From: Bdellovibrionota bacterium
Lineage (GTDB): Bacteria; Bdellovibrionota; Bdellovibrionia; Bdellovibrionales; JAEYZS01
NCBI GenBank assembly: GCA_963169805.1
Contig: CAUJDY010000052.1
Location: 19,579 to 83,578, forward strand
Length of the DNA stretch: 64,000 nucleotides
Direction: 5' to 3'
In this document: piece by piece, positions 8,527 to 21,885 of the stretch
Layout of the letters: each line of letters begins with the position of its first letter
Position numbering within the stretch: position 1 is the stretch's first letter
Program-made: the position numbers and the translations under genes
The notes under the pieces: generated by a model
Database searches by the model: none
What the model was told of the DNA's origin: nothing
Seen by the model: only the letters and a program-made list of their open reading frames with translations

Positions 8527-9096
8527 ATGATCCAAAAAATGGATATTAAATCTTTAATTTCCCTAGTAAATTCAAATATTTCCGCAATCGAACACACTCA
8601 CCCCAGCACTGCGTACCAAGCCGTCAACTCAGCACTGTTAATGAGCTCAATCACAACACTTGTAGAAATGATACCCACTCTTGAAGGAAGAATTGTAAGT
8701 TTAATTTTAAGTGACAAGCCTATTTCCGATCTTCACGAGCAAATTCTAAAAAAGACGAACCATTCTTCGCACAGATATTTACAAAACATATCTTCTTCAA
8801 CTCTTAAAGTTTTTTATCACCTACATAAGCCTGAGTTTAAAGGCAGTATTGCAATACTAGAGGTTAACAATCTTATAACACTACTAGAACTTGTAAATGA
8901 GGCAACGAAATCCCAAATTGAAGTTGTCAACCATAACAACTCAAGAGGCTTTATGAACAATACTCTGTTTTTGAGTGCAGAGCCCAGTCTGCTTAAACAT
9001 TTCTTAGAAAAAAACAGTGAACGTATTTCTAAGCACCAGATAATTGAAAAACTGAGCACATCACTTTTGAGTTTTTTTAGCTTCGCTGAACCATAA
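8527..9096 (+). CDS. Hypothetical protein, 189 aa
   Basis: The ORF fills an otherwise empty interval. I recognised no motifs. It overlaps the neighbouring TPR gene convergently by 36 nt. Confidence 0.4.
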   Translation: MIQKMDIKSLISLVNSNISAIEHTHPSTAYQAVNSALLMSSITTLVEMIPTLEGRIVSLILSDKPISDLHEQILKKTNHSSHRYLQNISSSTLKVFYHLHKPEFKGSIAILEVNNLITLLELVNEATKSQIEVVNHNNSRGFMNNTLFLSAEPSLLKHFLEKNSERISKHQIIEKLSTSLLSFFSFAEP

Positions 9097-10140
9097 CGAC
9101 TGACACTTTTCTGTTTGATCCATATATTTTTTGTAAAGCTTCGGTTGTCCTAATTTATCTAAGTTATATGCATGCCTTCTCATCTCTAGTTCTGCCTCCT
9201 TAACATACGGACAAGCATTAAGAAATGACTGCAATGATTGATCATATTTTTTCAGCTGGAACTGTGCTTTTGCAAGCTCTAAAAAACAATCTCCGGCTTT
9301 TGGATTAATTATTCCACATTGACCGAAATGACTCTCCGACAACTCATAATTCTTAGCATTTTGACTTAGAAGCCCAGCTTCTCTTTGAGTCTGTTCTGAT
9401 TTTTTGAATTGCTTTGCTGCAGAGTAAAGAATTTTTCGCGCTTGATCTTCTGCTTCGGTATACTTAAATGCTAATGCAAGATTAACATGATTTTCTGCTA
9501 CATCAGGAGATTTAACAAGCGCAGATTGGCAAATATTTTTTGCACTATCAAAATACTTTTCTTTTATCTCTATTTTACACATCTCATTGAGCCACTTTGA
9601 TTTTTCACCAAATTTTTCAATTATTTCCAACAATATTAATCTTGCATCATAAGTATTTTTTTTACCAAGATAGAACTGATAAAGAGCTTCGTAGGCTTTC
9701 TCATACTTAGGCGCCTCCGAAATAGCTTGTCTGAAATTCTTGATAACTTCCTCTGTCTTGTTTATCTCTGCATACGCTTCACCTAAACGAACAAAAAAAC
9801 CAGGAGGCTGCTTCCCCATTGTTTTAATAATCTCGAGCGCACGCACCTCTTCTAGATGATCTTGTTTTTCATGAGAGATTTTTGCAATTAGCTCCAGACC
9901 ATCCACACTTTGCGGATCATTTCCAAGGCGTGCATTTTTGATTGCAGATTCATAATCTTTAATCAAAAGATAGTTCTTAGCTAGATCTAGAAAATCTTGG
10001 GGAGCCTTTTTACTTTTTGCGTCTATGTTTTTTATTCTTTGTTTAACCTGTGCGCTTGTAACAATTTTTTTTGCATATAATGAAAATCCAAGAAAGTGTG
10101 TACTCAAAATAAAAAATATCAAAAACTTCATAATTGCCAC
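9061..10140 (-). CDS. Secreted TPR-repeat protein (possible TadD-like accessory factor)
   Basis: Signal peptide without a lipobox Cys, then repeated TPR-like helices with an A/Y/L pattern. It starts 3 nt downstream of the pilin-like gene 10144..11022 and is divergent from the flp operon. Confidence 0.65.
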   Translation of the reverse strand: MAIMKFLIFFILSTHFLGFSLYAKKIVTSAQVKQRIKNIDAKSKKAPQDFLDLAKNYLLIKDYESAIKNARLGNDPQSVDGLELIAKISHEKQDHLEEVRALEIIKTMGKQPPGFFVRLGEAYAEINKTEEVIKNFRQAISEAPKYEKAYEALYQFYLGKKNTYDARLILLEIIEKFGEKSKWLNEMCKIEIKEKYFDSAKNICQSALVKSPDVAENHVNLALAFKYTEAEDQARKILYSAAKQFKKSEQTQREAGLLSQNAKNYELSESHFGQCGIINPKAGDCFLELAKAQFQLKKYDQSLQSFLNACPYVKEAELEMRRHAYNLDKLGQPKLYKKYMDQTEKCQSLWFSEAKKTQK

Positions 10141-11209: not shown

Positions 11210-11395
11210 ATGAAAAAACTCAAGAATTTTGCAAAACGCTTTTGCAAAGACGAATCTGCTCAGGGGGCTACTGAGTATATTCTTCTTCTAGTGGTTGTTG
11301 TTGGCTTAATTATGGTTTTTAAAGATCCAATCAAGAGAATGGTCTCTGATAAGTTGGGTCAACTACAAAATCAAATCCAACAAGTGAATCCATAA
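11210..11395 (+). CDS. flp: Flp-family pilin (61 aa)
   Basis: The leader and motif FCKDESAQG/ATEYILLLVVVVGLIMVF closely resemble Caulobacter PilA FLKDESG/ATAIEYGLI. A GGGGGA RBS lies 5 nt upstream of ATG 11210. The track ORF from TTG 11174 is probably an over-extension. Confidence 0.85.
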   Translation: MKKLKNFAKRFCKDESAQGATEYILLLVVVVGLIMVFKDPIKRMVSDKLGQLQNQIQQVNP

Positions 11396-11404
11396 GGTTA
11401 GCGT

Positions 11405-11602
11405 ATGACGACGGAGTTGGCGCTGCTTCTTACAATTTTTATGTTTGTCGTTATTGGAGTCTTTAAAACTCCAACGAAAACATTTGAAGAGGCAGGACCG
11501 CGACTTGGCCTGAGATTAGAAAAACAAATGGAAACTGGCACGGGGTTTAACAAGAAATCTTTTAATACCCCCAAGCCAATTACATGGGGACCAAAAAACT
11601 AA
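11405..11602 (+). CDS. Small leaderless pilin-like hydrophobic-N-terminus protein (65 aa)
   Basis: It begins MTTELALLLTIFMFVVIGVF. An in-frame TAG immediately upstream excludes a longer leader. It sits between flp and the prepilin peptidase gene. Confidence 0.45.
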   Translation: MTTELALLLTIFMFVVIGVFKTPTKTFEEAGPRLGLRLEKQMETGTGFNKKSFNTPKPITWGPKN

Positions 11603-12099
11603 TGTTTGGAACTATTTTACTACCAAGTATTATACTAGCGGTGTCTGCATTTGAAGACATTCGCACGAAGAGAGTAACAAATAAACTTCTTCTAAGTTTA
11701 TTTGCGGTAGTTTTTATTGTTCAGTTATTAGTTTTAAAGCAGTTTGAGTTTGCTGAAAGTATATCTGGAGTCGTAACTGCCTTTCTTCTTCTCTCTCCTC
11801 TATTTTTATTAAAAGCTTTAGGGGCAGCAGACATCAAAGTATTTATGCTTCTTGGTTTTTTAACAGGGCCTTACCAAATTTTGAATATCTTTATATTTAG
11901 CCTTGTATGTGCCGTTATATTTGGCTTTGCAATAGTAGTACAAAAAAAAGGATCTGCTGTTTTTTTCCAAAACATAAAAAATATTTTAACATTCAAAAAA
12001 GACCAGGTTTCAAATCTACAACATATACCGTTTACTGTAGCGCTTTTGGCAGGATGGATATGCTACTTGGTCTACCAATACCATGGGAGGATTATATGA
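11584..12099 (+). CDS. tadV: Flp prepilin peptidase (A24 aspartic peptidase, CpaA/TadV type)
   Basis: Polytopic membrane protein with two catalytic-Asp contexts, FEDIRTKRV and GAADIKVF. An alternative ATG at 11602 would give a TAATG junction with the upstream ORF. Confidence 0.85.
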   Translation: MGTKKLMFGTILLPSIILAVSAFEDIRTKRVTNKLLLSLFAVVFIVQLLVLKQFEFAESISGVVTAFLLLSPLFLLKALGAADIKVFMLLGFLTGPYQILNIFIFSLVCAVIFGFAIVVQKKGSAVFFQNIKNILTFKKDQVSNLQHIPFTVALLAGWICYLVYQYHGRII

Positions 12100-12362
12100 A
12101 TAAAAATCCAACCGTGACAAATAATCAAAAAGGTCAAGTCGCTGTAGAATATATTCTTCTAACAGTAGTTATGGCAGGACTAGCCATCGCTGCGCATAAT
12201 TATATATCAAGCACAAATATGCTAGGTGGATACGTACAAAAACCCTGGCAATTAATATCTAGTATGATTGAGACAGGTGTTTGGGGTGAAGCTCGAGTGG
12301 CTAGGACCCAACACCCAGGCAAACTCTATAGACATTTATCACTTGAGGGAGAGCCAGAATGA
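12096..12362 (+). CDS. Flp/TadE-type prepilin-like protein (88 aa)
   Basis: NQKG/QVAVEYILLTVVMAGLAIA has the canonical G/xxxxEY motif. GGGAGG RBS. ATGA overlap with the tadV stop. The track ORF from 11907 is an upstream extension running inside tadV. Confidence 0.7.
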   Translation: MNKNPTVTNNQKGQVAVEYILLTVVMAGLAIAAHNYISSTNMLGGYVQKPWQLISSMIETGVWGEARVARTQHPGKLYRHLSLEGEPE

Positions 12363-12928
12363 ATTCAAATGGAGGCATAACCCTTGATTTTATTTTTGCA
12401 CTTGTACTGGTACTATCTATGACCTTACTTCTAGGAGTTTTTAGTTTTTCATTAGCAATAATAGAAAGCACTCAGTATATAGCTTACTCCGCATCACGTG
12501 CATATTTTCCTGCTCATATTAATGAGGAGACTCAAAAACGCATGGCTGATGAAAAATTTGAAGAGTTAACAAAATCAAGTGGTTTCAAATCATTTTTAAA
12601 ACCAGACTTATTCAAAATATCTGTGGATCGTATTGGGGATACTGGGGATATCTATCAACGGGCAACAACTAAAGATATTCTAGATGGAGTTAGGCTAAAA
12701 ATTATCTTAGAGATACTTGATATTCAACTACCCGGCCTAGGTACTACTCAAGGGCAACCCTACGAGACTTTTGTTACATCTCTGCTAGGAAGAGAATCAA
12801 CATCTGAAGAATGTCAAAATTTTATGCAACAGCGATTCAATGCTCTACTAAATGTTCCAGGTTCCACATACTCGTCTTCATCAATTCAACCAGAGCAGTA
12901 CTTTGCTTTCGAAGATAACGGATGTTGA
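12359..12928 (+). CDS. TadE/TadF-like pseudopilin candidate (189 aa)
   Basis: N-terminus NGG/ITLDFIFALVLVLSMTLLLG is a pilin-like hydrophobic helix with Asp in place of Glu. ATGA overlap with the upstream gene. Confidence 0.5.
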   Translation: MNSNGGITLDFIFALVLVLSMTLLLGVFSFSLAIIESTQYIAYSASRAYFPAHINEETQKRMADEKFEELTKSSGFKSFLKPDLFKISVDRIGDTGDIYQRATTKDILDGVRLKIILEILDIQLPGLGTTQGQPYETFVTSLLGRESTSEECQNFMQQRFNALLNVPGSTYSSSSIQPEQYFAFEDNGC

Positions 12929-12929
12929 T

Positions 12930-13412
12930 ATGAAAAAAACGAATATTAGAAAAATTATTGAAAATGAAAAGGGAATAGCAACAATGGAGTCAGCTTTGCT
13001 TCTGACAATCTTTGTTGTATTTATGACTTATTGTATTGGTTTCTTTGGCGTAGTTCACTCTGGAATATTAAATTCTATTTCTGCTAGGGCCTACACATTT
13101 GAAACATTTAGAAACAGATCTAATCTAACCTACTTCAGAGATGAATTAGGTACTCAATCATTACACTATAACAAATATGGATTTCGTGCTCATGGAATTA
13201 TATCTGAAAAATCACCTGTTGGGGCAACTGATGGCCAATGGTACGTCACAGAACGAACTATAGCTCAAGGGAAAGAATCTCCTACCGTAACTAACAGAAG
13301 AAATCCAAATCAATTAGATCAAGCATTAAGACGCGAAACAGAAGGCGCCAATCCTGTATGGATTAAAACAACATATGGAATCTGTTTAAATCAAACCTGT
13401 GGGGATGGTTAA
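12930..13412 (+). CDS. TadE-like pseudopilin candidate (160 aa)
   Basis: EKG/IATMESALLLTIFVVF places Glu at +5. The ATG lies 1 nt after the upstream stop. The track ORF from 12852 is an extension. Confidence 0.6.
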   Translation: MKKTNIRKIIENEKGIATMESALLLTIFVVFMTYCIGFFGVVHSGILNSISARAYTFETFRNRSNLTYFRDELGTQSLHYNKYGFRAHGIISEKSPVGATDGQWYVTERTIAQGKESPTVTNRRNPNQLDQALRRETEGANPVWIKTTYGICLNQTCGDG

Positions 13413-13413
13413 T

Positions 13414-14304
13414 ATGAACCAAAATCAAACACGCACATTATGGATATCAATAGGACTTGGTATTTTTTCAATGATTCTAATCTACAGCTATTCGCAAGAG
13501 AAAAAAGCGGAGTACGATAAAAGATATGGTACTTCAAAAAGAATTTTGATTGCAGCCAAAGATATTTTAGAAATGCAAACGATTGATGAAACGATGATTG
13601 AATTTGCAGAAGTTCCTCAGGAGTTTGCCCAACCTGGATCCATAACAGAGCCAGATTTGGTTATTAATCGTGTTGCAGCTACACCTTTTAAAAAAGGCGA
13701 ACAGATATTAAACACCAAAGTACTAAGCCTTGGAGCAAACACTGGACTTTCAAATCAAGTAGCACCAGGAAAAAGAGCTATTTCAATTCCTATTGACGAA
13801 GCCAGAGGTGTGTCAAAACTCGTTCAACCAGGTGATCGAATTGATATTCTTTCAAGCATAGAAGTTGGTAAAGGAATTAATAAAGATTTAGAGGTTAAAA
13901 CAATACTTCAAGATGTGGTTGTTCTAGCTACAGGTTTAAAAATTACAAATAATATTCCAAGAGTTCGAGAAAAAGCAGGATTTTCCAATGAGGAGTTCTT
14001 TAGAAATTTAAATGGAGATACAAGCTTTTCGACAGTTACAATTGAAGTGGATCCTCAAGAAGCACAAAGTTTAGTCTATATAATGGCGACTTCTCCTGGA
14101 AGTTTATTTTTCTCTCTTAGAAATCCAAATGATCGAATCAAAAATACTATTCCAACATCTACAGTAAATTCTGTTTTAGGGAGAGCATCCATACCACAGT
14201 TTACTGCTCCAGCACCGCAACCTGTGGTTCAAAAGCCAGCTCCACTCCCGGTTAAACGTGTCCCTGCAAGCACTCGCAGAGGACCATTCATAGAGGTGAA
14301 ATAA
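13414..14304 (+). CDS. cpaB: Flp pilus assembly protein CpaB/RcpC
   Basis: N-terminal TM, a SAF-like segment (ILIAAKDILEMQTIDETMI) and the RcpC-type GKRAISIPIDEARGVSKLVQPGDRIDIL. The start could also be 13399 or 13405. Confidence 0.85.
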   Translation: MNQNQTRTLWISIGLGIFSMILIYSYSQEKKAEYDKRYGTSKRILIAAKDILEMQTIDETMIEFAEVPQEFAQPGSITEPDLVINRVAATPFKKGEQILNTKVLSLGANTGLSNQVAPGKRAISIPIDEARGVSKLVQPGDRIDILSSIEVGKGINKDLEVKTILQDVVVLATGLKITNNIPRVREKAGFSNEEFFRNLNGDTSFSTVTIEVDPQEAQSLVYIMATSPGSLFFSLRNPNDRIKNTIPTSTVNSVLGRASIPQFTAPAPQPVVQKPAPLPVKRVPASTRRGPFIEVK

Positions 14305-15773
14305 TGAAAACACTCCTCATACTCTTTATTGTAATACTTTTACCCTCAATTGGGTTAGCCCAAGATAATAAAAGTGCTACAAAGAAATTTTTGAATTTAA
14401 CCGTTGGACTTTCCACTGACGAAAAGCTGCCGTTTTTGCCTGATGACCCTCAGTTTACAGGAGACTTTAAAAAAATCACAAAACTCTCTGTAGCAAAAGA
14501 CATGAAAATTCTTAGATTTGATCCAACAGCTGAGGGAGTTGGCACATTAAACGTACTAGATAATCGCGGAAGAAAAGTGGCAGAGTACGTTATAACAATT
14601 AAAAAGAGTAAGCTAGAAAATGTTGTGCGTGAAATGAGAGCTCTTCTTGGAGAAATAGAGGGAATCTCAATTAAAATTATCAACAATAAAGTTGTTGTTG
14701 ACGGAGAAATCTTACTTCCAAAGGATATGAACCGTATTATGAGCGTTGTTAGTCAATACGGAGACCAAGCAGCGACCATAGTCACTTTGAGTCCAATTGC
14801 ACAAAAGAAGATCGCAGAAATTATTGAAAAAGATATCAATAATCCTGAAATTACCGTGAGAGCAGTTAATGGTAAATTTATTTTGGAAGGACTCGCGGGA
14901 TCAAAAGAAGAAAAAGACAGAGCAGAAATTATAGCAAAAACATATGTCCCAGACTATGTTGTTGGTGCAGCAGAAAAAACTGGCGACATTAAGGTACAAC
15001 GATCTCTTCCTGTCTTAAACTTGATTGAATTAAAACCAGCAGGAGAAGCTCCTCCAAAAAAAATCGTACAGCTTGTTGTTCATTATGTTGAGCTACAAAA
15101 AGACTACACGCGTGGATTTAGATTTCAATTCACACCTACACTAGAAGATCAAACCAAAATTGACTTCCAAAGTGGAAGCAGATCACCCTCTGGTTTTATT
15201 ACTTCCATTACTGGTATAGTTTCAAACTTACTTCCCAAGCTGAATTGGGCTAAGGAGCACGGGCACGCAAGAATTCTGCAAACATCCTCTGTTATTGTTC
15301 TAGAGGGACAGGCTGGAAAAATCCAATCCGTTACAAAAGTTCCTTACCAAACGACTGGTGCGCAAGGGCAAATTCAAACTAGTTTTGAAGATGCAGGTAT
15401 CATTACAGATATTACACCTACAATTCCCAATCCGAATTCAGATAGTATAAATTTATCAGTTAGCTTTAAATTAAAAAGCTTGATCGGACAGACAGAAAGC
15501 GGCCCACTCATTTCTGACAACTCAATTCAGACGGCAGTAACAGTTCGCTCATCTCAAAGCGCAGCAATTGGTGGATTAGTTTCTAATTCGAGTGGAACTG
15601 ATTATAATAAATTACCTAAGGGTACTTCTGATAATCCGCTCATCTCTCTCTATTCCTCTAAATTCTTCAGAAGAAATCAGTCGCAGTTCGTTGTTTTTAT
15701 TACGCCAATTATTAAAAATTCAGCTTCTGCAGGCTCTGAAAAAATTAAAGCCAAATTTCGATTAAGAGAGTAA
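14304..15773 (+). CDS. cpaC: Tad secretin CpaC/RcpA
   Basis: Signal peptide, N-terminal BON/N-domain-like region and a C-terminal secretin domain (ARILQTSSVIVLEGQAGKIQSV...VVFITPIIK). Its ATG overlaps the cpaB stop. Confidence 0.9.
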   Translation: MKTLLILFIVILLPSIGLAQDNKSATKKFLNLTVGLSTDEKLPFLPDDPQFTGDFKKITKLSVAKDMKILRFDPTAEGVGTLNVLDNRGRKVAEYVITIKKSKLENVVREMRALLGEIEGISIKIINNKVVVDGEILLPKDMNRIMSVVSQYGDQAATIVTLSPIAQKKIAEIIEKDINNPEITVRAVNGKFILEGLAGSKEEKDRAEIIAKTYVPDYVVGAAEKTGDIKVQRSLPVLNLIELKPAGEAPPKKIVQLVVHYVELQKDYTRGFRFQFTPTLEDQTKIDFQSGSRSPSGFITSITGIVSNLLPKLNWAKEHGHARILQTSSVIVLEGQAGKIQSVTKVPYQTTGAQGQIQTSFEDAGIITDITPTIPNPNSDSINLSVSFKLKSLIGQTESGPLISDNSIQTAVTVRSSQSAAIGGLVSNSSGTDYNKLPKGTSDNPLISLYSSKFFRRNQSQFVVFITPIIKNSASAGSEKIKAKFRLRE

Positions 15774-15776
15774 AAA

Positions 15777-17942
15777 ATGACACAAGGTTCGTACATCATT
15801 TCTATAATAGGAGGAAAGGGCGGAGTTGGGAAATCTGTCTTTGCTGCCAATTTTGCATTGGCAACTCTTAAAGAAATGAAGAGCCGCGTGCTCCTTATGG
15901 ATCTAGACGGTGAATCGTGTGGAGATCAAAATGTCATTCTGGGTGTAAGACCCTTAAAGACCATAGGTGAATTAGCTCAGTCTAATATACAAATTAGTAT
16001 GCAGACAGTTGGTACACTGGTTACAAAGCATAGCTCTGGTCTTGGATATATCGGAGCTGTAAAATCCCCATCAGAACAACTTTCTCTTGCGCCTGAGCTT
16101 ATAGATTCTCCACTTAATCAACTCAGCACTGTCTTTCCATATATAATTTGCGATCTTGGCTGTCACTTAGGTGATTTACAAATGAAGATCTTAGAGAAAA
16201 GTACCTGTATCATTCTAGTGACAACTCCTGAGGTTTTGGCAATTAATCAATCTCTTAAAATGATGAATCAGTTGATTGCTACAACTTTACCTACAGATGT
16301 TTTTCAAATTGTTCTTAATAAAGTTACAAATCAGTCTTTGAATCCACAAATGATTGCGCAAACTTTCAAAAAACAACCTCTTGGTATGATCCCGCAGGAC
16401 GATAATTCTTCATATGCGGCTCTTCAAGCTGGCAATCCAGTTGTTACCATGCAGCCACAATCTCAAATTGCTCAAGCTTATCATGATCTAGCAAGAAGAA
16501 TTACTTCTCCTGCCCTTTTACAAAAACTTGCAAGCCTTTCAAAACCAACAAACTTGGCTAATCCTTTTCAGCAGAATAGCAATGCTGGAAATAAAAATAT
16601 TGTAAGCAAACCCGGCAGCATTGATCGAAAATCTAATCCTAGAAATATTTTTAAAGAGCAAGTTCACAGAGAGCTTATTGAGGCAATGAATCTTCGAAAA
16701 GGTATCACTGAAACAAAGGGTGATCCTGAAAAAGAAAAACAACTGCAAATAAAAACTCAGCAAGCAATTTCTCAGATTGTAGACAAACTTCAGCCAGGAA
16801 TGGCTAGAGATGAGCGATCTCAAATAATGAAAGAAGTTTTAGATGAGGCGCTTGGATTAGGACCTCTAGAAAATTTACTAGATGACGACTCTGTAACAGA
16901 AATTATGGTTAATGGCTTTGATAAAATATTTGTTGAAAGAAGCGGTCGAATACAACTCAGTCCAATCACATTTACCTCTAATGTGCATCTTCGAAATGTC
17001 ATTGAGAGAATCGTAACCCCACTTGGTAGACGCATAGACGAAAAGACTCCTTATGTCGATGCACGATTAAAAGATGGAAGCCGTGTGAATGCTGTTGTCG
17101 AACCAATTGCCATTGATGGGCCGTCATTAACTATTCGAAAGTTTGCTAAAAAACCTGTTACTACTGATAATTATATTCAGTGGGGCTCTCTAACTGAACC
17201 GATGATTGATTTTCTAAGAATCTGCGTAGAAAACGGACTAAATGTCGTTATTTCTGGAGGCACCGGATCTGGTAAAACAACTTTACTTAATGTTATGTCG
17301 AGCTTCATCCCCGCAACTGAAAGAATTGTAACCGTTGAAGATGCTGCTGAGTTGCAATTAAAGCAAGAACATGTCGTCAGATTAGAAACCCGGCCAGCCA
17401 ATATGGAAGGAACTGGGTCTATAACAATTCGCGACCTCGTTAGAAATTCATTACGCATGAGACCGGATCGAATTGTGGTGGGAGAATGTCGAGGAGGCGA
17501 AGCACTTGATATGCTATCTGCAATGAATACCGGCCACGACGGATCTATGACAACTGTTCACGCCAATTCTCCGCGCGAAGCAATTGGAAGACTAGAAACA
17601 TTATGTCTTATGGCAGGGATGGATCTACCTGCTAAGGCAATACGCGAGCAGATTTCAGGTGCTGTTGATTTAATAATTCAGATTTCAAGACTGTCTGATG
17701 GCAGTAGAAAAGTGCTTAGCATCACTGAAGTTGCAGGCATGCAAGGCGAAACCATAACTCTCCAAGAAATTTTTAGATTTAAAGAGGAGGGCTTCGATAA
17801 AAATAGAAAAATCATTGGACAATTTCTAGCATCTGGCTTGATTCCTACCTTTATCGAAGAGTTTGAGCGAAAGGGTATTAAAATTCCAAGAACACTTTTC
17901 TCAAATGACAACAACCTCAAAAAAGTCTCTGGAGGTCGTTAA
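15777..17942 (+). CDS. Fusion protein: TadZ/CpaE-like MinD/ParA ATPase domain + TadA/CpaF secretion ATPase
   Basis: Residues 12-20 are GGKGGVGKS, a deviant Walker A of MinD/CpaE type. Residues ~250-295 are a low-complexity linker. Residues ~295-721 are a complete CpaF: GLGPLENLLDD, Walker A GGTGSGKT at 494-501, RPDRIVVGECRG, GHDGSMTTVHAN. Confidence 0.9.
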   Translation: MTQGSYIISIIGGKGGVGKSVFAANFALATLKEMKSRVLLMDLDGESCGDQNVILGVRPLKTIGELAQSNIQISMQTVGTLVTKHSSGLGYIGAVKSPSEQLSLAPELIDSPLNQLSTVFPYIICDLGCHLGDLQMKILEKSTCIILVTTPEVLAINQSLKMMNQLIATTLPTDVFQIVLNKVTNQSLNPQMIAQTFKKQPLGMIPQDDNSSYAALQAGNPVVTMQPQSQIAQAYHDLARRITSPALLQKLASLSKPTNLANPFQQNSNAGNKNIVSKPGSIDRKSNPRNIFKEQVHRELIEAMNLRKGITETKGDPEKEKQLQIKTQQAISQIVDKLQPGMARDERSQIMKEVLDEALGLGPLENLLDDDSVTEIMVNGFDKIFVERSGRIQLSPITFTSNVHLRNVIERIVTPLGRRIDEKTPYVDARLKDGSRVNAVVEPIAIDGPSLTIRKFAKKPVTTDNYIQWGSLTEPMIDFLRICVENGLNVVISGGTGSGKTTLLNVMSSFIPATERIVTVEDAAELQLKQEHVVRLETRPANMEGTGSITIRDLVRNSLRMRPDRIVVGECRGGEALDMLSAMNTGHDGSMTTVHANSPREAIGRLETLCLMAGMDLPAKAIREQISGAVDLIIQISRLSDGSRKVLSITEVAGMQGETITLQEIFRFKEEGFDKNRKIIGQFLASGLIPTFIEEFERKGIKIPRTLFSNDNNLKKVSGGR

Positions 17943-18817
17943 TGTCAATTTTTGCTAATGAACTCGTATTTACAATTCTCTTTGGACTTTGTATATTTGG
18001 AATTTCTTATTTTCAATCTGAAAAAGTAATTGATTGGCTGAGGCAAAAAAGCTTAGGAAGTCGTGAATACGTTATTCAAAAATTAGAACTCATGTTTGTC
18101 GATGTAGATCATAAAAAACTAACAGCAACTATGCTACTTTTAAGTCTTGGTATAGGTTTTCTAGTTTTTTTATTAGTTTGGCCAAACTTAATAGTAGGAT
18201 TTATACTTGGATCCATAGTTACGTACTTTGGATGGCAGGCTCCTAAGTTTCTTGTAGACTATCTCTTTGAAAAGCGATCTGACTTACTTGTAAATCAAAT
18301 GGTTGACGGTTTAACAATCATGTCAAACGGAATTCGTTCTGGCCTAAGTGTTACTCAATCTATGGAAAGAGTTGTAGATAATATGCCAAACCCTATTCGC
18401 CAAGAATTTGGTCTAGTCTTATCACAAATTAAACTCGGCTTAAGTATAGAAGAAGCTCTTTCAAATTTGGGAAATAGGATCCCAGCTCCTGATATTCAAA
18501 TGTTTGTTACAGCAATTAACATACTAAAGGAAACTGGCGGAAACTTAGGAGAAACTTTTGCAACGATGGTTGAAACCATACGGGAAAGACAGAAGATTCA
18601 TAAAAAAATAGAAGCTCTAACCGCTCAGGGCGTAACTCAGGGAATTATTATTACATGTATCCCTTTTGTCCTAATGCTTGTTTTCTTTTTTGTTGATCCT
18701 GGTTTTATCAAACCCTTATTTACAACAACACTTGGAATCATACTTTTATTTGTGATGCTTTCTTTACAGATTATCGGTGGTCTGATGATTCGAAAAATTG
18801 TTAAGATTAAAGTCTAG
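17942..18817 (+). CDS. tadB: Tad platform protein (T2SS-F domain, TadB/TadC family); single copy
   Basis: 291-aa polytopic protein with one GspF-like cytoplasmic domain (GLSVTQSMERV...PIRQEFGLVLSQIKLGLSIEEAL). TAATG overlap with the ATPase gene. No second paralogue follows. Confidence 0.85.
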   Translation: MSIFANELVFTILFGLCIFGISYFQSEKVIDWLRQKSLGSREYVIQKLELMFVDVDHKKLTATMLLLSLGIGFLVFLLVWPNLIVGFILGSIVTYFGWQAPKFLVDYLFEKRSDLLVNQMVDGLTIMSNGIRSGLSVTQSMERVVDNMPNPIRQEFGLVLSQIKLGLSIEEALSNLGNRIPAPDIQMFVTAINILKETGGNLGETFATMVETIRERQKIHKKIEALTAQGVTQGIIITCIPFVLMLVFFFVDPGFIKPLFTTTLGIILLFVMLSLQIIGGLMIRKIVKIKV

Positions 18818-18903
18818 TCAAGAGATGCGTAATTTTCTCCTCATAATCTCCATTTTCTTATAAAATAAACGAAAGATATCAATCACCTCAAAGATGGAGT
18901 TTT

Positions 18904-20547
18904 GTGATGAAATTGGTCATGAGTGTTCAACTCAGTCTTCTCGCTTTTATAGGAATCTATTCTCTCCCAGCCACTGCCCTTGTAGATATGCAAGGCGCAA
19001 ACTTTACAGAAACATTTGTTGATATGGAAATACCTGACAGTGGTTATAATCTAAGAGTCGAAAGAGCATATAATAGCAGAACTTTGTTTAATGGAATTTT
19101 TGGCTTTGGAATGTGTTCCAATTTTGAAACAAAACTTGAAATCTTGGCAGATGGAAGGCTCAAACGAATTGAATGTGGATCAGGTCAGGAAATCGATTTT
19201 ATTCCAAGAACTTTTTCTGACAAAGACGTTCAATCTGGGATCAAAAAAATAATGTCTGCACTTAAAAAAGAAAATCCAAAAATGACAGCTACTCAATCTA
19301 AGGCTATCGAAAAGAGATTAACAGATGACCCTCTTTACAGAGATGAACAAAATATAAAGTTTGGAATTGAAAAGGCAATTAAAGAAGACACTGTATTTTA
19401 CTCTGTATCTAACTCAACTGATAAAATTGTATTTAAAAAAACACATTATCAAAGAGACTTAGAAGATGGCACCTCTGAGCGATTTGATCTGCAGGGTCGA
19501 ATTTCCTTTATGTATGATAAGAATAAAAACTTTATTAAATTTGACTACGATGGAAACAAGCTAATCTCCGTAACGAGTGCATCTGGAAATAAGCTTACAC
19601 TTTCTTACTACCAAACAGGTAAAGTAAAGGAAATCAGAGGGCCTCGCGGTCTGTCTTCAATTTATAAATATGATAAAATTAACGATTTATCGTATGTTAT
19701 GACAGCCGCTAAAGAAGAATATGAGTATAAGTACGATGCTCTCCACAATGTGGTAGAAATCACATACCCAGACAAGACAAAGAAAAAACTTGGATATAAT
19801 CAAGATAAAGACTGGGTTACAAGCCTCACAGATAGAAACGGCTGCACTGAAACATATAACTATGAGCTTTCCAAGACAGATCCTAAAAACAACTTCTTTT
19901 CCTCTGTAGAAAAAAAATGTGAAGGAAAAGTTGTTAATAAAAGTCGTTACGGATTTTGGTTTAAAGATAGGAAGAATAAAAGCAGTAGCTTTCTATCAAA
20001 ACTTACAATTGATATTAATGGAGTAAAATCAGAAATTGAATATCATGATGTTTTTGAAAAACCATTACGTATTAAAAGACAAAATGAACTCACAGTTTAC
20101 GATTACTTTGCAAACGGATTACTTAAGTCAAAAAAAGTAGGAAAATCCCTCATTACCTATACATATAACAAACAAAACCGTGTATCTGAGGTTCGTGATG
20201 GCAAGAAGTTTACAAAGTTTACTTATGATCCTAAGGGAAATCTAACTTATGCAGAAAACTCAGAAGGACAAAAAGTGCAATTAAACTACGATACTCGAGG
20301 AAGAATTGTTAAGTTGATAGATCAAGCTAAGCGACTTATTAATATTGAATATGATGATAAAGTCGGAAAACCTAGCATAGTAGAAAGGCCCGGCGTCGGA
20401 ACAATCTTTGTAACTTATGATTCAAGCGGAACGGTTCAGAAAGTTAGATCTAAGGATAATGATCCCACCGTTGCAGTCCAGGTTGCCTCAGCATTTAATA
20501 ACCTTATAGAAATTGTAACTCCAGCAGGAGTTCAGGTAGGCATATAA
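18904..20547 (+). CDS. Secreted YD/RHS-repeat protein (547 aa)
   Basis: Signal peptide. RHS-type N-terminal block LRVERAYNSRTLFNGIFGFGMCSNFE. Many YD repeats (YDGNKLISV, YKYDALHNVVEITYPD, YTYNKQNRVSEV, FTYDPKGNLTY, LNYDTRGRIVK). No recognisable C-terminal toxin or cleavage motif. Confidence 0.85.
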   Translation: MMKLVMSVQLSLLAFIGIYSLPATALVDMQGANFTETFVDMEIPDSGYNLRVERAYNSRTLFNGIFGFGMCSNFETKLEILADGRLKRIECGSGQEIDFIPRTFSDKDVQSGIKKIMSALKKENPKMTATQSKAIEKRLTDDPLYRDEQNIKFGIEKAIKEDTVFYSVSNSTDKIVFKKTHYQRDLEDGTSERFDLQGRISFMYDKNKNFIKFDYDGNKLISVTSASGNKLTLSYYQTGKVKEIRGPRGLSSIYKYDKINDLSYVMTAAKEEYEYKYDALHNVVEITYPDKTKKKLGYNQDKDWVTSLTDRNGCTETYNYELSKTDPKNNFFSSVEKKCEGKVVNKSRYGFWFKDRKNKSSSFLSKLTIDINGVKSEIEYHDVFEKPLRIKRQNELTVYDYFANGLLKSKKVGKSLITYTYNKQNRVSEVRDGKKFTKFTYDPKGNLTYAENSEGQKVQLNYDTRGRIVKLIDQAKRLINIEYDDKVGKPSIVERPGVGTIFVTYDSSGTVQKVRSKDNDPTVAVQVASAFNNLIEIVTPAGVQVGI

Positions 20548-20756
20548 TGGTCATATTATTCACTTTTTTTGTTAGTTTTTTGGCTGCTCAAAATCAAACT
20601 CAAGCAACAGAGGCTGCTGTAAGCACGAGTTGCGATGAATATATCCCTGGGGTTATTTGTACTCAAAAATACCAGTCACGCACCCGTCTATCTGATGAAG
20701 CTCCCAAGCCAAGTACTTCCGTTACACCCCCAGCAGCTTCTGCAGGGTCGAACTAA
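20547..20756 (+). CDS. Small secreted Cys-pair / Pro-Ser-Ala-rich protein (69 aa)
   Basis: Its start overlaps the YD-protein stop (TAATG). Hydrophobic N-terminus MVILFTFFVSFLAAQ. Two Cys residues (SCDEYIPGVIC). The tail looks disordered: APKPSTSVTPPAASAGSN. Confidence 0.5.
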   Translation: MVILFTFFVSFLAAQNQTQATEAAVSTSCDEYIPGVICTQKYQSRTRLSDEAPKPSTSVTPPAASAGSN

Positions 20757-21071: not shown

Positions 21072-21422
21072 TTACTCCATTTCGTAATCTTGATTCTCTT
21101 GAGCTTGGCTTTTGAGCTCTTGTTCTTTTTCGTACTTTTGACTTCTTTTGACTTTAACAATGTCTCGCTTACCAGGTGAATTATCAGATCTAAATTTTTG
21201 TGTTATCAAAGAATCAAATGTTTTGATTGCACCTTTATATGTAGATCTAAAAAGCGCCGCCCCACCTTGTGCAACTTCATTTAAAGGTTCCAATATACTG
21301 GATGTTTTCAAAAAAAAGTGTGTATGATTTTCTACAGTCTCTTCCCCTATTTTAATTTGCATAATTAACACAACCAGTACAGTTGCTATAAACACTTTCA
21401 GAACAAATCCAAGATGACTCAT
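21072..21422 (-). CDS. Membrane-anchored hypothetical protein (116 aa)
   Basis: N-terminal TM helix FVLKVFIATVLVVLIM and a charged K/E/Q tail. Its start ATG overlaps the stop codon of the upstream response-regulator gene by 1 nt. Confidence 0.5.
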   Translation of the reverse strand: MSHLGFVLKVFIATVLVVLIMQIKIGEETVENHTHFFLKTSSILEPLNEVAQGGAALFRSTYKGAIKTFDSLITQKFRSDNSPGKRDIVKVKRSQKYEKEQELKSQAQENQDYEME

Positions 21423-21796
21423 TATTGCCCCCTTTTTTCTAAACTCGTTTTAATCGTATGAATTAAATTTTCAATTTTGAATGGCTTCTCTACAAAATCA
21501 ACGCAACCAGCATCTAGAGCTTTAACAACCATCGACTCACTTCCTTCTGTTGAACACGCGATGATTAAGCTGGTAGGTTTAACTTTTAATATCTCCTGCG
21601 TTGCTTGAATTCCACTTTTAATAGGCATCACGATGTCCATCAAAATGACATCAAAATCATTTTCCAAGGCAATTTTTGTAGCCTCTTCTCCATTTTGTGC
21701 CTCTGCGGCCACCACAAAGCCATGCCGTGAAAGTATTTGCGTTAACACTTCCCGAACAAATGCTGCATCATCAACAATCAGTACTTTCTTTGACAT
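21422..21796 (-). CDS. Single-domain CheY-like response regulator
   Basis: Receiver motifs VLIVDDA, phospho-acceptor ILMDIVMP, and KALDAGCVDFVEKPF. ATG at 21796 with an AGGGA RBS is preferred over the GTG at 21826. Confidence 0.85.
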   Translation of the reverse strand: MSKKVLIVDDAAFVREVLTQILSRHGFVVAAEAQNGEEATKIALENDFDVILMDIVMPIKSGIQATQEILKVKPTSLIIACSTEGSESMVVKALDAGCVDFVEKPFKIENLIHTIKTSLEKRGQ

Positions 21797-21885
21797 TTCA
21801 TCCCTACAAACGTAAAAACCTTTCACTTCCGATTATATTATTGCTGACCCTGAAAACCCAAACAGTTATATTCAAATCTCGACGT

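Follow-up and report, generated by a model that had tools for sequence, protein, structure and literature searches.

A region of a 64-kb stretch of Bdellovibrionota DNA (the window, meaning the whole stretch analysed) carried the motor and platform end of a Tad/Flp pilus locus, and this region was most probably orthologous to tad locus 1 and the hit (host-interaction) locus of Bdellovibrio bacteriovorus HD100. On this reading, to which we assigned a probability of roughly 0.85, a 721-amino-acid (aa) gene of the region is tadZA, which joins a TadZ-type localization ATPase and the TadA/CpaF motor ATPase in one chain, and the second platform gene, tadC, lies elsewhere in the genome. A preliminary description of this DNA had assumed the arrangement to be unusual and undescribed. 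It was, however, published under the name TadZA in July 2026 for HD100, which was reported to have a TadZA fusion without the atypical receiver domain (ARD), a tadZA-tadB operon, and a separate tadC (Tesseur et al., bioRxiv 10.64898/2026.07.08.737194). The window holds an uncharacterised orthologue of a fusion and gene cluster already known from Bdellovibrio, and no new kind of system is represented in it. In a text search for the fusion's names, the HD100 preprint was the sole paper found to name it.

The 721-aa protein contained two ATPase domains in one open reading frame (ORF), with Pfam matches to CbiA at residues 8-215, ParA at 6-242, and T2SSE at 359-645 (PF00437, 214 bits). This bore out the description of a MinD/ParA-type N-terminal domain with the motif GGKGGVGKS at residues 12-20, a low-complexity linker at about residues 250-295, and a full CpaF/TadA ATPase with a second Walker A motif, GGTGSGKT, at residues 494-501. 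The residues of the catalytic motifs were intact in both halves. The deviant Walker A motif (K/RGGxGxS/T) of the ParA/MinD fold of TadZ/CpaE proteins was present in the N-terminal domain as KGGVGKS at residues 14-20, and the nucleotide-binding and dimerisation motif was preserved (signature Lys14, Lys19, Asp44, and Asp126), with K14, G16, G18, D44, and D126 invariant even across phyla. The ATPase half scored 343.8 bits with the TadA-family NCBIfam model and had 42-48% identity to the solved CpaF structures 8rkd and 9e24, and GGTGSGKT and the downstream catalytic motifs were invariant in 15 homologues. The T2SSE domain with its Walker A, Asp box, Walker B, and His box and the neighbouring rcpA and tadB genes in a tad locus are the features of the TadA/CpaF family. 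This half was a standard, complete TadA/CpaF and, by homology, would form a hexameric, bifunctional extension/retraction motor, as CpaF does in C. crescentus (PMC11300603, PMC13170226). The linker, about 35-45 residues long, was the sole poorly conserved stretch in an alignment of 15 sequences and was modelled by AlphaFold2 as disordered, with a predicted local distance difference test (pLDDT) score <50 at residues 262-283.

In canonical loci, tadZ lies immediately 5' of tadA on the same strand, and loss of a stop codon could therefore pass for a fusion of this kind, either through an assembly or sequencing error or through pseudogene-like read-through of the two adjacent genes. This explanation was effectively refuted, and we gave it next to no probability. 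An identical 721-aa product was found on contigs of four separate sequencing runs (ERR10643333, ERR10643334, ERR10643335, and ERR15459718; Logan assemblies), which answered the concern about assembly raised in the preliminary description. The fused frame was kept in more than 120 full-length database homologues, a lower bound of which the best 120 were listed. These had 61-89% identity and lengths of 710-771 aa, with CbiA and T2SSE in all 120, strict patterns for both Walker A motifs in 117, and no stop or frameshift in the linker, although the linker differed among homologues in both length and sequence. The homologues with a named source among them were Bdellovibrionota metagenome-assembled genomes (MAGs), save one labelled "Proteobacteria bacterium." Among the 150 best representatives of a library clustered at 50% identity, 56 likewise combined a ParA domain and, downstream of it, the ATPase in a single chain. 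Read-through of a canonical tadZ would also bring along its ARD of about 140 residues, which the N-terminal domain lacked, and the fusion has been experimentally studied in HD100. The covalently tethered, receiver-less TadZ and TadA is, as judged from these comparisons, a conserved and selected architecture, and the proposal of a localization ATPase tethered to the motor was upheld in that form.

Orthology to HD100 was approached through related loci, designated L005-L015, from 11 Bdellovibrionota species-representative genomes among the matches listed of a genome scan with the fusion protein. They included two complete genus-Bdellovibrio genomes (HCB288 and qaytius) and one Bdellovibrio MAG. 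In all 11 loci the ATPase was fused (714-765 aa) and stood in a tadZA-tadB arrangement, and the order flp...tadE...rcpC-rcpA-tadZA-tadB-RHS/YD was common to the window and the related loci. The window TadZA shared 58% and 54% identity with the fused proteins of Bdellovibrio sp. HCB288 and B. sp. qaytius, respectively, in the same gene order. In HD100 tad locus 1, TadZA is Bd0111, with tadB at Bd0110, rcpA at Bd0112, and rcpC at Bd0113 (Tesseur et al.), and Bd0109 is an RHS/YD protein of the hit locus, co-transcribed with bd0110-bd0111 (PMC3818213). The window matched this locus in having an ARD-less TadZ, a flexible linker, and TadA in one chain, a coupled tadB alone adjacent to it, the same order from flp to tadB, and an RHS/YD hit-locus gene directly 3'. 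By family and position, the RHS/YD protein is the equivalent of Bd0109, and its gene was kept 3' of tadB in 10 of the 11 Bdellovibrionota loci.

The N-terminal domain was nearer to the TadZ proteins of tad loci than to MinD or other ParA families, with the caveat that this assignment came from a home-made hidden Markov model (HMM) and that a solved TadZ structure scored low. Its 39 members were stand-alone TadZ proteins whose genes lie directly 5' of tadA in canonical loci, and they were found through similarity to the TadZA N-terminal domain itself. The model matched TadZA residues 3-246 with 164.8 bits (E 1e-52), affirming the relatedness to CpaE/TadZ that the preliminary description had put up for checking. 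The match spanned only positions 142-385 of the 404-position model. Positions 1 to about 140, which represent the ARD, were unmatched, indicating that this domain is missing from TadZA, and there is no space for a receiver domain because the ParA fold starts at residue ~6. The receiver domain expected of TadZ/CpaE was equally absent from all 56 fused representatives, in which the ParA domain started at or before residue 25.

Among curated models, the best match of the N-terminal domain was archaeal MinD at 85.6 bits, below cut-off; a second MinD NCBIfam model reached 69.9 bits and CpaE_hom_Actino merely 53.9 bits. Searches against solved structures gave 105-141 bits for MinD, FlhG, and 3ea0 (141 for 3ea0), as against 45.9 bits for the E. 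rectale TadZ structure 3fkq, and Foldseek TMt values were 0.7-0.89 with 3ea0, FlhG, and MinD. Together with the missing ARD, these values would suit a domain not derived from TadZ, namely a MinD/FlhG-type ParA ATPase that was recruited independently and fused to TadA, in which case TadZ-like behaviour should not be assumed. The 39-sequence TadZ profile, however, covered the whole N-terminal domain at about twice the score of the MinD models, and the HD100 orthologue acts as a positioning module. Denise et al. (2019, PMC6668835) reported that TadZ matches archaeal type IV pilus HMM profiles and not those of other bacterial systems, which may be why archaeal MinD was the best curated match here. 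A non-TadZ origin was thus judged very unlikely, and this small probability was kept because the domain resembles generic MinD, FlhG, and ParA proteins among solved structures.

The start codon of tadB overlapped the stop codon of tadZA by 1 nt (TAATG), indicating that tadZA and tadB are translationally coupled. The preliminary description had recognised only this platform gene, with no separate tadZ/cpaE gene and no receiver-like N-terminal domain, and all three observations held within the 64 kb. Searches of the window by tblastn with both halves of TadZA and the platform protein, and with an HMM trained on TadB and TadC, found neither a further T2SSF gene nor a ParA/TadZ gene apart from tadZA. 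No T2SSF gene was present in the 4.4 kb beyond the 3' end of the window. In each of the 11 Bdellovibrionota loci exactly one T2SSF gene followed the ATPase, and no second was found within 10 kb of tadZA.

From the single platform gene, the preliminary description had inferred a streamlined motor with a homomeric platform. To classify the platform protein, 34 canonical loci with two adjacent T2SSF genes were used as a comparison set, in which the first position was taken as TadB and the second as TadC. The window protein scored 253.4 bits with the TadB HMM and 67.9 bits with the TadC HMM, and its median phmmer score was 118 against the 34 TadB-position genes, compared with 36 for those TadC-position genes with a match (31 of 34). 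The difference between 253 and 68 bits indicated a specialised TadB and not an undifferentiated single platform protein, and with such clear TadB orthology the inference of a homomeric platform was unsupported. Denise et al. (2019) concluded that TadB and TadC derived by fission of a two-domain platform gene (PMC6668835). In HD100, the identical tadZA-tadB arrangement coexists with a TadC that is essential, polar, and encoded far away: tadC could not be deleted, forms unipolar foci, and lies apart (Tesseur et al.). It corresponds to Bd0470, the orthologue of KilH/TadC, about 360 locus-tag numbers away from tadB Bd0110, in a comparison that also assigned Bd0111 as the ATPase (PMC8460266 supplementary file 2). 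By analogy with HD100, the partner tadC of the window organism most likely lies at another site in the genome, and the platform would therefore most likely be the usual TadB-TadC heteromer.

The alternative was a streamlined Tad machine that had lost tadC, in which the platform beneath the tethered TadZ-TadA motor would be a homomer of TadB. The lack of a second T2SSF gene in the window and around the 11 related loci is what such a loss would produce, and some Actinobacteria have Tad systems that lost TadC (PMC6668835), which makes a system lacking it conceivable. A profile was made of 13 proteins from the TadC position of those canonical loci nearest to the window TadB or ATPase, and a search with it of a 5.8-billion-protein database yielded no Bdellovibrionota-named source among the best 120 matches listed. 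These matches were filled by an abundant unrelated clade, the few named sources being Verrucomicrobiota, Kiritimatiellia, or Lentisphaerae (the Planctomycetes-Verrucomicrobia-Chlamydiae, or PVC, group), so that the search was uninformative on Bdellovibrionota and was not evidence of absence. Considering also the specialised character of TadB and the distant tadC of HD100, we considered the loss of tadC unlikely. Were it nevertheless to hold for this lineage, and perhaps for others with fused TadZA, a TadB-only platform with a tethered, receiver-less motor would constitute a minimal diderm Tad machine, an idea we regarded as very improbable.

Several points weighed against the assignment to an HD100-like tadZA locus with a dispersed tadC. 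The tadC gene of the window organism was not found within the 64 kb and the further 4.4 kb, the actinobacterial losses offer a precedent for its absence, and the N-terminal domain scored well below its MinD and FlhG matches with 3fkq. The AlphaFold2 model of the entire fusion, built from a shallow 15-sequence alignment, was unreliable in the ATPase half (pLDDT ~30, unusable, compared with 78-95 in the N-terminal domain), and therefore no inter-domain geometry could be read from it. Orthology to HD100 was inferred by way of other Bdellovibrio genomes and the published gene order. The window locus also contained tadV, unlike the genus Bdellovibrio, so details may differ. Besides the window, 7 of the 11 Bdellovibrionota loci carried tadV, and the three genus-Bdellovibrio loci (L007-L009) lacked it, a distribution that agrees with Avidan 2017 for non-Bdellovibrio Bdellovibrio and like organisms (BALOs). 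The window thus did not share the genus-Bdellovibrio trait of having no TadV in the tad locus. HD100, without a TadV in its locus, is reported to use the type IVa pilus peptidase PilD, whereas the window lineage has its own TadV.

An HD100-like TadZA suggests a mechanism by which the pilus motor could be positioned. The TadA/CpaF hexamer sits beneath the inner-membrane platform and powers both the extension and the retraction of the Flp pilus via the RcpC/RcpA conduit. The in situ map from Caulobacter was fitted with six CpaE dimers in a ring that encircles the CpaF hexamer, and its authors suggested that contacts between CpaE dimers are made via the receiver domains. In HD100, TadZ together with the linker directly binds the polarity hub RomR, the polar bias of TadZA is RomR-dependent, and the Tad machine is essential for stable prey attachment and invasion (Tesseur et al.). 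In B. bacteriovorus, TadZA is proposed to connect pilus assembly with the RomR polarity hub. By orthology, the TadZ part and linker of the window protein may bind RomR and bias the motor to the invasive pole. The tether would replace the non-covalent CpaE-CpaF contact and fix a 1:1 ratio, with six TadZ domains per hexamer rather than twelve, and the fusion would ensure that the positioning module is delivered together with the motor. The role of the lost receiver domain could be supplied in trans by RomR, which itself contains a receiver domain, as the preprint proposes. The experimental data belong to HD100, and the window locus is known from sequence.

Compared with the canonical Tad/Cpa systems of Aggregatibacter and Caulobacter, the window locus had the same protein families, the same Z-A-B order, and a Flp pilus with RcpC/RcpA. 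The canonical systems have separate TadZ/CpaE and TadA/CpaF proteins and a tadC after tadB, whereas in the window TadZ and TadA formed one chain without an ARD and no tadC was adjacent. The Kil system of Myxococcus xanthus, which mediates contact-dependent prey killing, is likewise a Tad-derived machine of a predator with genes spread over more than one locus, and KilF, KilG, and KilH are reciprocal best hits of Bd0111, Bd0110, and Bd0470. It differs in that kilG and kilH lie together in cluster 2 with the ATPase in cluster 1, and in that it assembles at prey contact sites and not at a pole. The terms TadZ and CpaE each have no occurrence in the Kil system paper.

The window shows conservation well outside the genus Bdellovibrio, in a TadV-bearing lineage, of the fused motor, the single tadB next to it, and the RHS/YD hit-locus gene downstream. 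The modest new lead was breadth, as receiver-less fusions occurred in at least 56 clusters at 50% identity from several phyla, including Omnitrophota. Among the matches listed, receiver-less TadZ-TadA fusions of 702-748 aa were found in four Omnitrophota MAGs (L016, L017, L029, and L038), a Planctomycetales MAG (L047), an Elusimicrobia MAG (L055), and an unclassified MAG (L022). Pfam confirmed CbiA and T2SSE in one Omnitrophota protein and in the Elusimicrobia protein. In the Omnitrophota and Planctomycetales fusion loci, a secretin gene was followed by the fused ATPase and no T2SSF platform gene was found within the locus. A softer form of the idea of a minimal machine, likewise held improbable, would make the receiver-less fusions an old Tad motor subtype spanning Bdellovibrionota, Omnitrophota, Planctomycetota, and Elusimicrobia, whose emergence went along with the dispersal of platform genes and left a distinct polarity protein to supply the receiver function.

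A third class of ATPases, FHA-CpaF (PVC group and Beta/Gammaproteobacteria; 545-644 aa in L035, L060, L061, L066, L071, L078, L082, and others), was similar in carrying an N-terminal regulatory domain on the TadA chain with no tadZ in the locus. It differed in having an FHA instead of a ParA/MinD domain and in having tadB and tadC both adjacent, as in L071 and L035. The TadB proteins of this class included the highest-scoring matches to the window TadB. In a neighbour-joining tree of the ATPase domain, built without support values, the fused and FHA-CpaF classes fell in one superclade apart from the loci with a separate tadZ. The fused proteins were not strictly monophyletic in this tree, and the fusions may or may not all share a single origin. 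A 1260-aa frame in a Candidatus Eremiobacterota MAG (L032:9134-12916) was an apparent TadZ-TadA-TadB triple fusion, with CbiA at residues 294-481, T2SSE at 626-901, and T2SSF at 1092-1217; a 287-aa T2SSF gene of its own came next. The frame may be genuine, or it may be an artefact of a lost stop in this high-GC MAG.

The genes of the locus ran on the + strand from 11210 to 20756, with two further genes divergently upstream (Table 1).

Table 1. Features of the tad locus in the window, with the evidence for each assignment (positions are those of the window).
Feature	Position	Strand	Evidence or remarks
Secreted TPR protein lacking a lipobox cysteine; may be a TadD-like or regulatory partner	9061..10140	-	TPR Pfam
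292-aa protein; prepilin-like N-terminus RG/QAVLEYVLLL; C-terminal transmembrane helix	10144..11022	-	Divergent from flp
flp pilin, 61 aa; G/ATEYILLL processing motif	11210..11395	+	PF16982 Flp1_like on the identical gene in two other assemblies (L001, L002)
65-aa hydrophobic small protein between flp and tadV	11405..11602	+	Homologues in L005-L010, equally placed
tadV/cpaA prepilin peptidase, 171 aa	11584..12099	+	Peptidase_A24, 60 bits
TadE-like pseudopilin; N-terminus ...KG/QVAVEYILL	12096..12362	+	Motif; kept in L005-L008 and L010
189-aa membrane-anchored protein; possible TadF-like minor pilin, by position only	12359..12928	+	Conserved in L005-L011 and L014; no Pfam match
TadE-like pseudopilin, 160 aa; N-terminus ...EKG/IATMESALLL	12930..13412	+	Motif; conserved in related loci; no Pfam match
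rcpC/cpaB	13399..14304	+	RcpC and SAF Pfam; TIGR03177 150 bits, above cut-off
rcpA/cpaC secretin	14304..15773	+	BON and Secretin Pfam; directly 5' of tadZA in all Bdellovibrionota loci compared
tadZA, one 721-aa ORF; TadZ-type ParA/MinD ATPase domain and TadA/CpaF motor ATPase	15777..17942	+	Pfam CbiA/ParA and T2SSE
TadZ-like atypical ATPase domain of tadZA, residues 1-256	15777..16544	+	Walker A deviant (GGKGGVGKS, 12-20); not preceded by a receiver (ARD) domain
Variable low-complexity linker of tadZA, ~residues 257-292	16545..16652	+	Alignment and pLDDT
TadA/CpaF secretion ATPase part of tadZA	16653..17942	+	Walker A GGTGSGKT, residues 494-501
tadB inner-membrane platform protein, 291 aa	17942..18817	+	One T2SSF domain (residues 125-248, 71 bits)
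Secreted RHS/YD-repeat protein, 546 aa, after tadB	18904..20547	+	RHS_repeat, DUF6531, TEN_YD-shell
69-aa ORF; signal-like N-terminus	20547..20756	+	At the position of hit-locus gene bd0108 (positional equivalence only)

The preliminary description had recognised no lipoprotein tadD and no tadG. The TPR protein, which has no lipobox, and the prepilin-like 292-aa protein are, however, encoded divergently upstream, and TadD- and TadG-like functions may therefore be present. The TPR protein gave weak PilW and GltE NCBIfam matches below cut-off and had homologues in L005 and L006. The 292-aa protein had a long, Gly/Ser/Glu-rich, low-complexity middle region, no Pfam or NCBIfam match, and homologues only in the same two loci, the closest to the window. 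No homologues of the 69-aa ORF at the 3' end were detected in the related loci, and Rfam, tRNA, and promoter/terminator scans of the region returned nothing informative. The 65-aa ORF between flp and tadV opened with a pilin-like hydrophobic segment (MTTELALLL...) and had no leader peptide. Within TadZA, a helix was predicted by AlphaFold2 at residues 245-252. A MinD-like membrane-targeting amphipathic helix at residues 245-256, suggested by a conserved L-x-x-L-x-x-L pattern, was considered and abandoned, as the hydrophobic moment there was unremarkable. A few genes 3' of the locus, a single-domain CheY-like response regulator of about 124-134 aa was encoded on the - strand (21422..21826); conserved counterparts lay at comparable positions in L005-L008 (E 1e-21 to 1e-28), and a link to Tad regulation is possible.

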